Positions 11,506-16,854 of a stretch of DNA of 23,984 bases are shown here, one piece after another; within the stretch, counting starts at the first letter, position 1, and every line of letters starts with the position of its first letter. The position numbers were made by a program, and so were the translations under genes. The notes beneath the pieces are model-generated. The model was not told where the DNA came from. It searched no databases and was given only the letters and a program-made list of their open reading frames with translations. This DNA comes from Escherichia coli (GTDB lineage Bacteria; Pseudomonadota; Gammaproteobacteria; Enterobacterales; Enterobacteriaceae). The DNA lies in the NCBI RefSeq assembly GCF_003334305.1, contig NZ_QOWS01000038.1, one strand, 5' to 3'.

Positions 11506-12930
11506 TTAATGTTTAACCATGACGTGGCGGACGACGGTGTAATCCTCCAGCCCATAAAGTGACATATCCTTGCCGTAACCAGAAAGTTTCTGCCCACCGT
11601 GCGGCATTTCACTTACCAGCATGAAATGGGTATTGACCCAGGTACAACCATATTGCAGCCGTGCGCTGACGCGATGCGCCCTGCCCACATCTTTCGTCCA
11701 TACCGAAGATGCAAGTCCGTACTGGCTGTCATTCGCCCAGTTCACCACCTGTTCTTCGTTGTCGAAGGGCGTAACACTCACTACTGGACCAAATACCTCT
11801 TTTTGCACGATGGCATCGTCCTGTAATGCGCCAGCCAGCAGCGTCGGCGCATAGTAATAGCCATTACCCTTGCGCTTTTCACCGCCAGTGATCACTTTGA
11901 TGTGCCCTGTCGCTTTCGCCTCTTCTACTGCCTTGCTGACGCGTTCGAGATGCGCCAGCGAGCTTAAAGGTCCAAGCTCCGTAGACTCGTCATCCGGCGC
12001 ACCAGATTTTAACGTTGCCACCGCAGCACCCAGTTTTTCCACCAGCGTATCGTAAATGCCTTTTTGCGCGTAGATCCGACAAGCCGCAGTACAATCCTGT
12101 CCAGCATTGTAATAGCCAAATGTACGTACACCTTCGACCACTGCTTCAATATCCGCATCATCAAAAACAATCACTGGCGCTTTGCCACCAAGTTCCATAT
12201 GAGTACGCTTAATGGACGACGCGGTATGGCTGATGATGTGCTCGCCGGTGGCGATAGAGCCCGTCAGCGACACCATCCGCACTTTGGGATGACCGGTCAG
12301 CGGATCACCCACCGTTTTGCCTCTGCCAAACAGTACGTTAATCACGCCTGCCGGGAAGATATCTTTCGCCAGCTCTGCCAACTTCAACGCGGTCAGCGGG
12401 GTAATTTCTGATGGTTTAAGCACTACGCAGTTCCCTGCCGCCAGCGCCGGAGCCAGTTTCCACGCTGCCATCATCAGCGGATAATTCCACGGTGCGATAG
12501 AAGCCACGACCCCCAACGGATCGCGACGGATCATCGAAGTATGACCTTCAAGATATTCACCTGCCGCCAGACCATTCAGACAGCGCGCCGCACCCGCGAA
12601 AAAGCGAAAAACATCGACAATCGCCGGGATTTCATCATTGAACGCACTATGCAGCGGTTTGCCACAATTACGGGACTCCAGTTCGGCAAAAACCTGACCA
12701 TTTTCTTCGATAACATCAGCCAGTTTCAGCAGACATTCCGCACGCACTTTCGGCGTGGTTTGCCCCCATTCGGCAAATGCTGCATCTGCCGCGCGCACAG
12801 CAGCATCTACCTGCTCTGCGGATGCCTCTGCAATCTCCAGTAAAACGTCCCCCGTTGCCGGATTATAGACAGGCTGTTTTTCCCCTTCGCCGCTAACCAG
12901 TTCTCCGTTAATCAGTAACTTATGTTGCAT
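11506..12930 (-). CDS. patD: gamma-aminobutyraldehyde dehydrogenase (aldehyde dehydrogenase family)
   Basis: 474-aa ORF with ALDH signatures (catalytic region MELGGKAP and cysteine region NAGQDCTAA). Confidence 0.92.
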
Positions 12931-12951
12931 AGCATATTCCTGTATCAGTGG

Positions 12952-13746
12952 TTATTGACCATTGTCGCCTTCGCGGGTTAGCCACCAGGCCCCCAGGATC
13001 GGCAAGGTTGTTACCAACATAACCAGCAGTGCCACCACGTTAGTTACCGGTACATCACGCGGTCGCCCAAGCTGATTGAGCAACCACAACGGTAACGTTC
13101 GTTCATGACCTGCCGTAAAAGTCGTAACGATGATTTCATCGAACGACAAGGCAAACGCCAGCATTCCTCCTGCCAGTAGCGCCGAACTGAGATTCGGCAA
13201 CACTACGTAGCGGAAGGTTTGCCAGCCATTGGCCCCAAGATCCATTGACGCCTCAACCAGACTCCACGAGGTGCGGCGAAAACGGGCGATGACATTGTTA
13301 AACACCACCACTACGCAAAAAGTCGCATGACCGACCACGATGGTGAAAAATCCCGGCTCCAGATTGATGGTTTTAAAAGCGGTTAATAGCGCCAGACCAG
13401 TGACAATGCCCGGCAGCGCAATGGGCAGCAGCAGTAACAGCGAAATGGCGTTTTTGCCGAAAAAGTCTCGTCGCCACAGCGCGGCAGCTGCCAGCGTCCC
13501 TAACACCAGCGCAATTAATGTCGCCAGCGCCGCCACTTTAAGTGACAGTGTCACGGCATCAAGAATATCACTACGCTGTGCTGCCACGCTAAACCAGCGC
13601 AGCGTCAGGCCCTGCGGTGGAAAACTAAACGCCGCATCTTCAGTGTTAAACGCATAAGCGGCGATAATCAGGATGGGAAAATGTAGGAAAACCACGCCGC
13701 CCCAGGCCGCCAGTTTGAGGAAAAACGGTGCGCGTTCAGAGTGCAT
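12952..13746 (-). CDS. ydcV: ABC transporter permease (spermidine/putrescine-type)
   Basis: 264-aa multi-pass membrane ORF; overlaps the upstream ydcU by 11 bp. Confidence 0.88.
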
Positions 13747-14677: not shown

Positions 14678-15691
14678 TCACCTCTCCTCAACCAGCGGCA
14701 CCATCACATCACGCGACCAGGAAACCATCACCTGTTGTCCGGGCGTGAGCGTGGCAGGCAGTTCTTCGCCTGTCATATTGGCCTGACTCACAAGCAGTGT
14801 TTCACCGCCGTTCAATTTCAGTTCAAAACGAGTTGCCGCGCCCTGATATTGCACCGCCTGGATCGTGCCATTGGCCTGCAGTTCACCAGGGGTGTTGAGG
14901 CGGATATGTTCCGGTCGCAGGGCGAAGCTTCCCGTCATGCCACAAAGTTTCTCTGCCATCAGTCCATCAAAAACATTCGATGTACCAACGAACCCGGCAA
15001 CAAACGGCGTGCGCGGGCGCATATAGAGATCGCGCGGGGAATCGACCTGCTCAATGCGTCCATTATTGAAAACCGCCACACGATCGGACATCGATAACGC
15101 TTCGCCCTGATCGTGGGTAACGAAGATAAAAGTGATACCGAGAGACTGTTGCAGTTTTTTCAGTTCCAGCTGCATCTGCTCACGCAATTTGAGATCCAGT
15201 GCGCCGAGCGGTTCATCCAACAGCAATACGCGCGGTTCATTCACCAATGCTCTGGCGATAGCAACCCGCTGGCGCTGACCACCAGAAAGTTGTGACGGTT
15301 TACGTTGCTGTACAAACCCCAACGCCACTTTCTCCAGCGCCTCTTGCGCCATTGCGTGCCGCTGCTTTTTATTCACGCCTTTGACCATCAGCCCATAGGC
15401 GACATTGTCAAGAATCGACATATGCGGAAATAGCGCGTAGTCCTGAAAGACAGTATTCACGTCCCGCTCCCACGGTGGCAGATTGCTGGCGGGTTTACCA
15501 AAGATAGAGATAGCCCCGCCGGAAAGCTGTTCGAAGCCAGCAATCAGGCGCAGGCAGGTGGTTTTGCCGGAGCCGGACGGCCCCAGCATAGAGAAGAACT
15601 CACCATCTTTTATCGCAATACTGACGCCATCTACTGCGCGCACGTCACCGTACAACCGCGAGACGTTGTCAAACTCCACTGCGTACGTCAT
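14678..15691 (-). CDS. ydcT: ABC transporter ATP-binding protein
   Basis: 337-aa ORF with Walker A (GPSGSGKTT), ABC signature (LSGGQRQRV) and Walker B (LLLDEP). Confidence 0.9.
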   Translation of the reverse strand: MTYAVEFDNVSRLYGDVRAVDGVSIAIKDGEFFSMLGPSGSGKTTCLRLIAGFEQLSGGAISIFGKPASNLPPWERDVNTVFQDYALFPHMSILDNVAYGLMVKGVNKKQRHAMAQEALEKVALGFVQQRKPSQLSGGQRQRVAIARALVNEPRVLLLDEPLGALDLKLREQMQLELKKLQQSLGITFIFVTHDQGEALSMSDRVAVFNNGRIEQVDSPRDLYMRPRTPFVAGFVGTSNVFDGLMAEKLCGMTGSFALRPEHIRLNTPGELQANGTIQAVQYQGAATRFELKLNGGETLLVSQANMTGEELPATLTPGQQVMVSWSRDVMVPLVEER

Positions 15692-15708
15692 AAAGCACCC
15701 CAGCGAAG

Positions 15709-16854
15709 TTAGCGACCGCCCATAATGGCAATGTAATCCTGCGTCCAGCGACTGTAGGGAACAAACTTGCCCCCTTCTGCTATAGGCGTTTTCCAGAAGG
15801 CGATTTTGTCGAAATAGTTAAAACCGTTGGTTTCACAACCTTTTTCGCCTAATAACGGACTGGCTTTACACCCTTCCGGCACTACCGGTAACGAGCCAAA
15901 CCAGGCCGCCACATCGCCCTGCACTTTTGGCGTTAATGACCAGTTCATCCATTTGTAGGCGCAAACCGGATGTTTCGCTTCGCTATGCAGCATGGTGGTA
16001 TCAGCCCAACCGGTAACACCCTCCTTCGGGAAAACGGTAGCAACAGGCTGGCCTTCGGCTTTCAGGGCGTTGGCCTGATAGGGCCAGGCACTGGAAGCAA
16101 CCACACCCTCGTTTTTGAAATCGCTCATTTGCACGGTAGTGTCATGCCAGTAGCGATGGATCAAACTGTGTTGAGCGCGCAGCACTTTCAGCACCGCCTG
16201 GTACTGTTCTTCGGTTAGTTGATACGGATCGCTGATGCCCAACTGCGGCTGAGTGGCTTTAACGAACAACGCAGCGTCCGCAATGTAGATAGGGCCATCA
16301 TAAGCCTGAACGCGGCCTTTATTGCTCTTGCCGTCCGGCAGATTTTGCTCAACAAAAACCACTTGCCAGCTATCCGGCGGCGTCGGGAAGGTTTTAGTGT
16401 TGTACATCAGCAGGTTCGGCCCCCATTGGTAAGGTGTGCCGTAAACTTTGCCGCCAACATTAAACCAGTCGCCTTTAACCACGCGCGGATCGAGCGTTTT
16501 CCAGTTGGGAATCAAGGCGGTATTAATCGGCTGCACGCGTTTGCCCATAATCAAACGCAGCGAGGCATCGCCGGATGCCGTAACCAGATCGTAACCCCCT
16601 TTGGTCATCAGACTGACCATTTCATCGGAAGTCGCGGCGGTTTTCACATTCACCGCGCAGCCTGTCTCTTTTTCAAATTGCGTTACCCAGTCGTATTGTT
16701 TATCATTTTGTCCGCGTTCGATGTATCCCGGCCAGGCGATAATATCCAGTCGCCCTTCCGGTTTATCTAAATTGGTAGGTGGTTCGGCGGCGTGAGCGGT
16801 CATTATTGTCATGCTGAGCGCACACAGGCTGCTGCGGGCAAATGTCTTGCTCAT
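15709..16854 (-). CDS. ydcS: periplasmic substrate-binding protein of the ABC system (polyamine-binding family)
   Basis: 381-aa ORF with signal peptide (MSKTFARSSLCALSMTIMTAHA); first gene of the co-directional ydcS-ydcT-ydcU-ydcV-patD run. Confidence 0.88.
   Translation of the reverse strand: MSKTFARSSLCALSMTIMTAHAAEPPTNLDKPEGRLDIIAWPGYIERGQNDKQYDWVTQFEKETGCAVNVKTAATSDEMVSLMTKGGYDLVTASGDASLRLIMGKRVQPINTALIPNWKTLDPRVVKGDWFNVGGKVYGTPYQWGPNLLMYNTKTFPTPPDSWQVVFVEQNLPDGKSNKGRVQAYDGPIYIADAALFVKATQPQLGISDPYQLTEEQYQAVLKVLRAQHSLIHRYWHDTTVQMSDFKNEGVVASSAWPYQANALKAEGQPVATVFPKEGVTGWADTTMLHSEAKHPVCAYKWMNWSLTPKVQGDVAAWFGSLPVVPEGCKASPLLGEKGCETNGFNYFDKIAFWKTPIAEGGKFVPYSRWTQDYIAIMGGR

Follow-up and report, generated by a model that had tools for sequence, protein, structure and literature searches.

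The genes ydcS, ydcT, ydcU, ydcV and patD (ydcW) of Escherichia coli, which encode an ATP-binding cassette (ABC) importer and a gamma-aminobutyraldehyde dehydrogenase, very probably form one polycistronic operon in which importer and PatD are coupled. The block lies in a 23,984-nucleotide stretch of contig NZ_QOWS01000038.1 (hereafter the window) and occupies positions 11506–16854, with the patD stop and the ydcS start as its exact limits. A preliminary description of this DNA had proposed a single transcript coupling the uptake of a polyamine-like substrate to gamma-aminobutyraldehyde oxidation and had called the arrangement known, which it is, as the operon name and its control by RpoS and Nac are already in the literature. 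Since both the operon and its control have been published, the finding is not new, and as a restatement of a catalogued E. coli operon it adds nothing alone. Its residual value is the substrate question, as the role of putrescine importer that is routinely given to YdcSTUV is a putative one.

The ydcSTUV-patD transcription unit

Coordinates of the five-gene block were taken from the table of open reading frames (ORFs) and from a reading of the minus-strand sequence (lengths in amino acids, aa).

15709–16854, minus: ydcS, periplasmic substrate-binding protein, 381 aa, Sec signal peptide, PotD/PotF-type fold (ORF, NCBIfam, PDB, hhalign)
14678–15691, minus: ydcT, ABC ATPase, 337 aa (ORF, NCBIfam; orthologues with ABC_tran and TOBE_2)
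13736–14677, minus: ydcU, permease, 313 aa, PotB/PotH-like, below cut-offs (ORF, NCBIfam)
12952–13746, minus: ydcV, permease, 264 aa, PotC/PotI-like (ORF, NCBIfam)
11506–12930, minus: patD (ydcW), NAD-dependent gamma-aminobutyraldehyde dehydrogenase, 474 aa (TIGR03374 ABALDH)

The junctions between these genes, in nucleotides (nt), are as follows.

ydcS/ydcT: 17-nt gap, GGGG Shine-Dalgarno sequence
ydcT/ydcU: 0 nt, the stop abutting the start (GAGGAGAGG-TGA-ATG), GAGGAG Shine-Dalgarno sequence within the ydcT 3′ end
ydcU/ydcV: 11-nt overlap (ATGCACTCTGA), GGGAG Shine-Dalgarno sequence upstream
ydcV/patD: 21-nt gap, AGGA Shine-Dalgarno sequence upstream

The spacings given in the preliminary description (ydcT and ydcU abutting, ydcU and ydcV overlapping by 11 bp, 21 bp between ydcV and patD) are all exact by the ORF table and the minus-strand reading. 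That description gave neither the minus strand nor the 17-nt ydcS/ydcT gap. Every start codon of the block has its own Shine-Dalgarno sequence, and GC content is even across the five genes (0.51–0.56).

A single transcript is supported by the co-direction of the genes, the Shine-Dalgarno sequence at each junction, the conserved geometry (below) and the operon naming in the literature. The block has been handled as a single operon whose five genes co-cluster in expression (PMC11052181); ydcS and ydcT are lowered in an rpoS mutant (PMC13339887), RpoS dependence is also reported in PMC6135910, and control of the operon (ydcSTUVW) by Nac is listed (PMC6053447). Internal promoters or terminators splitting the genes, which the preliminary description had held to speak against a single transcript, were sought by scanning. 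A sigma-70 consensus scan gave 3 promoter-like sites (5.3 ± 1.8 in shuffled sequences) and an intrinsic terminator scan gave 10 terminator-like sites (7.2 ± 2.7 in shuffled sequences), no excess in either case; every one of these sites was weak and intragenic, and none fell at a gene junction. An Rfam scan of the whole window returned no family at threshold.

The gene identities, an importer and a dehydrogenase, are confirmed by NCBIfam and by annotation. YdcS scored above the NCBIfam YdcS equivalog (812.6 bits; cut-off 725), and PatD scored above the TIGR03374 ABALDH equivalog over residues 2–473 (1034.8 bits; cut-off 909.3). The best NCBIfam match of YdcT was PotA (E = 1.6e-107, under the equivalog cut-off), while YdcU and YdcV best matched PotB/PotH and PotC/PotI, respectively, both far under the equivalog cut-offs. 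By Pfam, with the domains seen in orthologues, the set comprises one ABC ATPase and two BPD_transp_1 permeases. YdcS is one residue apart from PDB 6NLP, essentially the same protein, and its nearest solved relatives after that entry are SpuE and PotF (E = 1e-19 to 1e-16). The RefSeq annotation of a 100%-identical genome uses the same five names. With a 6.5-kb query, megablast against complete E. coli genomes found 100% identity to strain A7 and at least 80% coverage in 5402 of 5426 genomes; the ydcSTUV-patD block is core E. coli chromosomal DNA.

Conservation of the module and its neighbours across species

We compared 84 loci, four of them contexts found by exact protein look-up and 80 of them species loci from a genome scan, and mapped ten query proteins. 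The scan loci are the best 80 of 577 YdcS relatives, so more distant homologues may differ. Within this set, patD lies 3′ of ydcV in 78 of the 78 loci of sufficient reach, 82 of 83 loci of different species retain the 11-nt ydcU/ydcV overlap, and ydcT and ydcU are −4 to +17 nt apart in every one of the 83. The ydcS/ydcT and ydcV/patD spacers are short in ydcR-type genomes (see below) only, and measure 50–270 nt elsewhere. The transporter–dehydrogenase module is thus ancient and fixed, and the tight packing noted in the preliminary description is partly specific to Enterobacteriaceae. The Lonsdalea britannica locus, which is counted among the 78, has patD in two reading frames (L059, 14193–15613), either a frameshift or a sequencing error.

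YdcS orthologues are 74–98% identical across Enterobacterales and Pseudomonas. For E. coli against Pseudomonas the identity of YdcS is 74–78%, with similar values for YdcU and YdcV; this seems high for a binding protein across two orders and suggests that the module is under strong constraint or has been transferred horizontally.

Two layouts account for most of the loci.

ydcR-ydcSTUV-patD: 42 loci, in Escherichia, Citrobacter, Enterobacter, Klebsiella, Kluyvera, Kosakonia and allies
lysR-ALDH2-ydcSTUV-patD: 36 loci, in Serratia, Rahnella, Lonsdalea, Hafnia, Sodalis, Acerihabitans and Pseudomonas

ALDH2 of the 36 lysR-type loci is a second PatD paralogue of the ABALDH subfamily, 62% identical to PatD, and its N-termini lack a signal peptide. 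Where Enterobacteriaceae have the MocR-type ydcR, Serratia, Pseudomonas and others have the LysR gene together with ALDH2. Buttiauxella, Cedecea and Dryocola either lack ydcR or have it at a distance of 1.2–3.2 kb.

Clustering of all ORFs from the 84 loci, with many clusters disregarded as antisense artefacts in GC-rich Pseudomonas DNA, gave no recurrent aminotransferase near the module. The aminotransferase gene patA is not in the window and was never linked to the module in these loci. A recurrent enzymatic neighbour was found in a homologue of spermidine dehydrogenase (SpdH), a 620–636-aa flavoprotein encoded directly after patD in 9 of the 36 lysR-type loci (six Serratia and three Pseudomonas lineages). 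These homologues match Pseudomonas aeruginosa SpdH (PDB 7D9F) with E = 1e-245, and the twin-arginine (Tat) motif ITRRDFLNG stands at the start of each of the nine. The gene after spdH in Serratia codes for a cytochrome c that has a Sec signal and three CxxCH motifs; in each of the six Serratia-type loci it shares 4 nt with spdH (e.g. L002, 13525–16616). Because of the Tat motif and the Sec-exported cytochrome c neighbour, the module-linked SpdH is predicted to work in the periplasm, a location that was proposed independently from the PAO1 sequence (PMC11107197). The products of SpdH, 4-aminobutanal and 3-aminopropanal (PMC9397018), are substrates of PatD-type enzymes, but these enzymes are cytoplasmic.

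This linkage has its limits. In six Pseudomonas loci (e.g. L081, 15766–17430), a permease of the amino-acid/choline family (APC) follows patD instead of spdH, so the neighbourhood varies. Neither spdH nor a cytochrome c gene nor a second dehydrogenase was found in the E. coli window, and SpdH or the second ABALDH paralogue was found in none of the 42 other ydcR-type loci. A reverse search from SpdH homologues recovered spdH-cytC 4 kb downstream of ydcSTUV-patD in Cronobacter, and found no ydcSTUV-type transporter near spdH in Aeromonas, Orrella or Erwinia. In Erwinia persicina (L089, 9001–12077), spdH-cytC stands alone between glnB and hmp, the same site that holds the full cluster in Serratia; the Serratia adjacency may therefore partly reflect the insertion site.

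The ydcR gene, probable transcript ends and proposed course of expression

The preliminary description omitted ydcR, which lies directly upstream of ydcS on the same strand. This gene, the intergenic spacer and the region past patD hold the following features.

17099–18505, minus: ydcR, MocR-family regulator (helix-turn-helix plus aminotransferase-like, binding pyridoxal phosphate, PLP), 244 nt upstream of ydcS (annotation, NCBIfam)
17018–17025, minus: candidate sigma-S type −10 element TCTATACT, with C at −13, in the best-conserved spacer block CCCCTTGTCTATACTCCAG (sequence read)
16886–16934, minus: conserved hairpin in the presumed 5′ leader, arms AGCCGCCGU and ACGGCACGGCGGCU, both highly conserved in 37 species (predicted fold)
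11432–11466: perfect 13-bp hairpin with a 9-nt loop, between the convergent patD and yncL, 40 nt past the patD stop

ydcR is co-directional with and upstream of ydcS in 42 loci of other species, and it belongs to the conserved unit in Enterobacteriaceae, though it lies outside the span first described. Residues 4–459 of YdcR match the PdxR, YczR, EhuR and MocR models, all below the NCBIfam subfamily cut-offs. By chemical proteomics, YdcR was reported to bind PLP and its own promoter fragment, with a ydcR-ydcS fragment serving as the negative control there (PMC9321722).

The ydcR-ydcS spacer (16855–17098, minus) was aligned across 37 Enterobacteriaceae species. Its conserved blocks include CCCCTTGTCTATACTCCAG and CACAACCTGATTAAATTTTC. 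The sigma-70 scan gave no site at the position of TCTATACT in the spacer, and we infer from its sequence and conservation that TCTATACT could be the −10 element of a sigma-S type promoter of the operon, which agrees with the reported RpoS dependence. The presumed 5′ leader as a whole is no more stable than its shuffles (z = 0.16), and our claim is therefore limited to a conserved hairpin and does not extend to a structured regulatory RNA. The loop of this hairpin (16934–16886) holds AAGGAGAUAUUUUU, including a Shine-Dalgarno-like AAGGAG with no obvious start codon after it.

At the other end of the block, the hairpin between patD and yncL has z = −2.6 for a 96-nt stretch and a U-tract on neither strand; the terminator scan missed it because no T-run follows. 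It is probably the transcript end, though not a canonical intrinsic terminator, and may act as a bidirectional non-canonical terminator or a 3′-end stabiliser.

Taken together, transcription would most likely start near position 17010, at the sigma-S type promoter proposed for the ydcR-ydcS spacer. The intrinsic terminator scan found no site in this 244-nt spacer, so transcripts from ydcR may also run on into ydcS. The transcript would probably end at the hairpin between patD and yncL. Translational coupling across the 17-nt gap, the abutting stop and start, and the 11-nt overlap would hold the four transporter genes in step, and patD would be translated from its own Shine-Dalgarno sequence 21 nt past ydcV. 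The products are an ABC importer of the PotD/PotF family (YdcS as binding protein, YdcT as ATPase, YdcU and YdcV as permeases) and the cytoplasmic PatD, which, as known from the literature, oxidises 4-aminobutanal to gamma-aminobutyrate (GABA). In this scheme, we infer the promoter position, the transcript end and the cargo.

Several points weigh against a single, tightly coupled operon as set out here. A promoter-like site inside ydcU (14533–14504, 10/12 matches) could be a minor internal start, and no U-tract accompanies the hairpin past patD. Sequence and conservation are the basis on which the transcript boundaries and the promoter are placed. The 50–270-nt ydcS/ydcT and ydcV/patD spacers of Pseudomonas and Serratia mean that tight coupling at these two junctions is specific to Enterobacteriaceae and not module-wide, and no transport assay for any YdcSTUV substrate is on record in the cited literature. 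The ydcU site, together with a ydcV-patD spacer that reaches 266 nt in Pseudomonas, would also fit an arrangement in which internal promoters account for most of the expression of patD, or of the permease genes, and the tight spacing is only a relic. We consider this quite improbable, as promoter-like sites are fewer than expected from shuffles, no terminator-like site stands at a junction, a 0-nt gap and an 11-nt overlap lie within the unit, and the five genes cluster in expression (PMC11052181).

Beyond ydcR, a hicAB toxin-antitoxin pair lies upstream at about 18584–19200. In the reference genome whose region is identical, hicA is annotated as frameshifted, and an IS200/IS605 tnpA pseudogene and insQ (TnpB-like) are annotated at or beyond the window end.

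The cargo of YdcSTUV and comparison with known systems

The preliminary description was correct in calling the transported substrate not firmly defined, as the cited literature terms the importer putative. YdcS has the type II periplasmic binding fold, as judged from 6NLP, the SpuE and PotF matches and hhalign; its NCBIfam scores are 62 bits for PotF (cut-off 636) and 46 bits for PotD (cut-off 582). To compare pockets, YdcS was aligned with PotF by hhalign (98.8% probability, 292 columns, 29% identity), using a PotF sequence confirmed against PDB 1A99. The acidic and polar residues by which PotF contacts both amino groups of a diamine are S38, D39, E185, D247 and D278. In this profile alignment, at 29% identity, W37, Y40, W244, F276 and D278 of PotF correspond to W41, Y44, W257, W283 and D285 of YdcS and are kept, whereas S38, D39 and E185 are replaced by P42, G43 and Y190, and D247 aligns into a YdcS deletion. 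YdcS also has, relative to PotF, a 7-residue insertion after the WPGY motif. The aromatic box is thus kept, while the full acidic and polar diamine set of PotF is not present, with D285 (the D278 equivalent) as its sole survivor. Orthologues of both layouts show little or no variation at the pocket positions, so YdcS of E. coli and YdcS of the SpdH-linked clusters probably share one specificity. An AlphaFold2 model of YdcS built on a 10-sequence alignment was too poor for use (mean pLDDT 48.5), and the literature on 6NLP/YdcS ligands yielded a docking study only, without ligand information. PMC11930149 describes 6NLP as a structure in the closed state.

As importer and dehydrogenase form a fixed module, the cargo should be a small omega-amino compound that is, or soon becomes, an omega-aminoaldehyde. 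This bears out the coupling to aminobutyraldehyde oxidation claimed in the preliminary description. The polyamine cargo is the weaker part of that claim, since putrescine reaches PatD only through PatA, which is encoded outside the window; no aminotransferase is linked to the module, and the acidic pocket residues are mostly lost. The SpdH linkage, the missing aminotransferase link and the altered pocket together suggest a cargo with one amino group, for which the sequences suggest an aminoaldehyde or its cyclic imine as the most economical candidate.

In such a salvage route, which we put forward tentatively, YdcS would bind 4-aminobutanal or its cyclic form, delta-1-pyrroline, and perhaps 3-aminopropanal, all made outside the cytoplasm when amines or polyamines are oxidised; YdcTUV would import it and PatD would immediately detoxify it to GABA. 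The source would be the periplasmic SpdH encoded beside patD in relatives and, in E. coli, an external one such as the amine oxidases of the host or of neighbouring microbes. This fits the observation that aminobutyraldehyde-type dehydrogenases are the sole enzymes in fixed linkage with the transporter (PatD in 78/78 loci, the second paralogue in 36), with no aminotransferase in any recurrent neighbour cluster of the 84 loci. It also fits the nine loci with a Tat-motif SpdH straight after patD (in Serratia with the tri-haem cytochrome c next), the Cronobacter spdH-cytC pair 4 kb downstream of patD, and a pocket that keeps the aromatic box and D278 of PotF and loses S38, D39, E185 and D247. SpdH makes both 4-aminobutanal and 3-aminopropanal (PMC9397018), and its site has been proposed to be periplasmic (PMC11107197). 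On the other hand, the E. coli window has no spdH, the spdH genes of Aeromonas, Orrella and Erwinia have no such transporter nearby, and 27 of the 36 LysR-type loci are without spdH, so that the link is recurrent but not obligatory; the reverse search accordingly lowered the probability that we give to this route. In addition, the Serratia adjacency could stem from insertion into a glnB-hmp locus that already held spdH, the pocket comparison comes from a 29%-identity profile alignment and not from the 6NLP coordinates, and delta-1-pyrroline may cross membranes unaided. It also counts against an aminoaldehyde cargo that we know of no ABC importer for such a compound, although no literature search was made for one. 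About equally probable, in our judgement, and no less tentative, is the classical route, in which YdcSTUV imports putrescine (or putrescine and spermidine), PatA (YgjG), encoded elsewhere, transaminates it, and PatD completes the conversion to GABA. Pot proteins are the best characterised relatives of all four transporter proteins, reviews and strain-engineering papers name YdcSTUV as a putrescine importer (PMC8674398, PMC10936423, PMC11930149), nitrogen scavenging fits control by Nac and RpoS, and the PatA-PatD pathway is established (PMC9397018). However, the cited literature terms YdcSTUV putative or predicted and quotes no uptake or binding data, the PotF and PotD scores of 62 and 46 bits compare with cut-offs of 636 and 582, the amine-contacting positions of PotF are mostly lost, no aminotransferase is linked in the 84 loci, and for putrescine E. 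coli can already rely on PotFGHI, PuuP, PlaP and PotE.

Two further readings appear less probable. The cargo could be 1,3-diaminopropane, the other SpdH product, or another small amine, with transamination encoded elsewhere and an aminoaldehyde dehydrogenase acting next. Such a cargo would share the SpdH linkage, the two dehydrogenase paralogues could divide C3 and C4 aldehydes between them, and the six Pseudomonas loci with an APC permease after patD would be in keeping with it. We nevertheless regard it as unlikely, as an unlinked aminotransferase would be needed, as for putrescine, and a diamine is expected to need two acidic contacts, which YdcS appears to lack. Published work has also placed YdcS and YdcV mainly outside small-molecule transport, describing YdcS as an alpha/beta-hydrolase-type synthase of poly-3-hydroxybutyrate in the periplasm (PMC3709699) and proposing YdcS and YdcV as a route for double-stranded DNA (PMC6135910), the latter with plate transformation down 6.7-fold in a ydcS mutant and 9.5-fold in a ydcV mutant (PMC6135910). 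These phenotypes are modest and could be indirect. YdcS has the fold of a solute-binding protein and not that of an alpha/beta hydrolase, no GXCXG or GXSXG lipase-box motif was found in its sequence, and the genes always occur within the full importer–dehydrogenase module, with YdcS 74–98% identical across two orders, a pattern typical of a metabolic uptake system. That either role is the main one is very improbable, and we rate both low, as indirect or secondary effects.

The strict linkage of transporter and dehydrogenase, the recurrent link to a periplasmic SpdH and the altered pocket thus reduce the substrate question to a short list of candidates for a system that is induced in the colonised gut (PMC10936423). 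Beyond the preliminary description, the comparison places ydcR in the unit, shows an aminoaldehyde dehydrogenase, and never an aminotransferase, as the sole constant enzymatic partner of the transporter, and makes an aminoaldehyde a reasonable alternative cargo. Whether YdcSTUV is not a polyamine importer at all but a dedicated importer of omega-aminoaldehydes or their cyclic imines that arise from amine and polyamine oxidation in the periplasm or the environment, with PatD (and in other genera also the second paralogue) as its obligatory cytoplasmic partner, is a conjecture that we would advance with reserve. If it is true, Serratia and some Pseudomonas would hold a full pathway (Tat-exported SpdH with cytochrome c, YdcSTUV and two dehydrogenases), maps of polyamine catabolism would be revised, and it would be explained why patD sits with the transporter and not with patA. 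To our knowledge, which here draws on no literature search for transporters of this kind, an aminoaldehyde has not yet been assigned to any binding-protein-dependent transporter, and YdcSTUV would be the first.

Compared with known systems, the locus is the same as the published ydcSTUV-patD (ydcSTUVW) of E. coli K-12, with no difference at the level of the operon finding. YdcSTUV has the same subunit set as PotFGHI and PotABCD of E. coli and SpuDEFGH of P. aeruginosa (a binding protein, one ATPase and two permeases), but it is only about 20–29% identical to PotFGHI and PotABCD, and its scores fall well short of the equivalog cut-offs for PotF and PotD. The pot operons have no dehydrogenase gene, unlike ydcSTUV-patD, and in potABCD the binding-protein gene comes last, whereas here it comes first. 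As with the MocR/GabR regulators found beside amine catabolic operons, YdcR combines a helix-turn-helix with an aminotransferase-like domain and is encoded upstream of the operon; against the PdxR, YczR, EhuR and GabR subfamilies, however, its scores are all below cut-off, and it fits no named one. In the SpdH route of Serratia marcescens and P. aeruginosa, the products feed PatD-type enzymes, and spdH adjoins the module in nine relatives; E. coli differs from these SpdH-linked relatives in having the MocR-type ydcR in place of their LysR gene. Finally, PatD is the second enzyme of the PatA (YgjG)-PatD pathway, in which PatA precedes it, whereas by linkage the fixed partner of PatD is the transporter.

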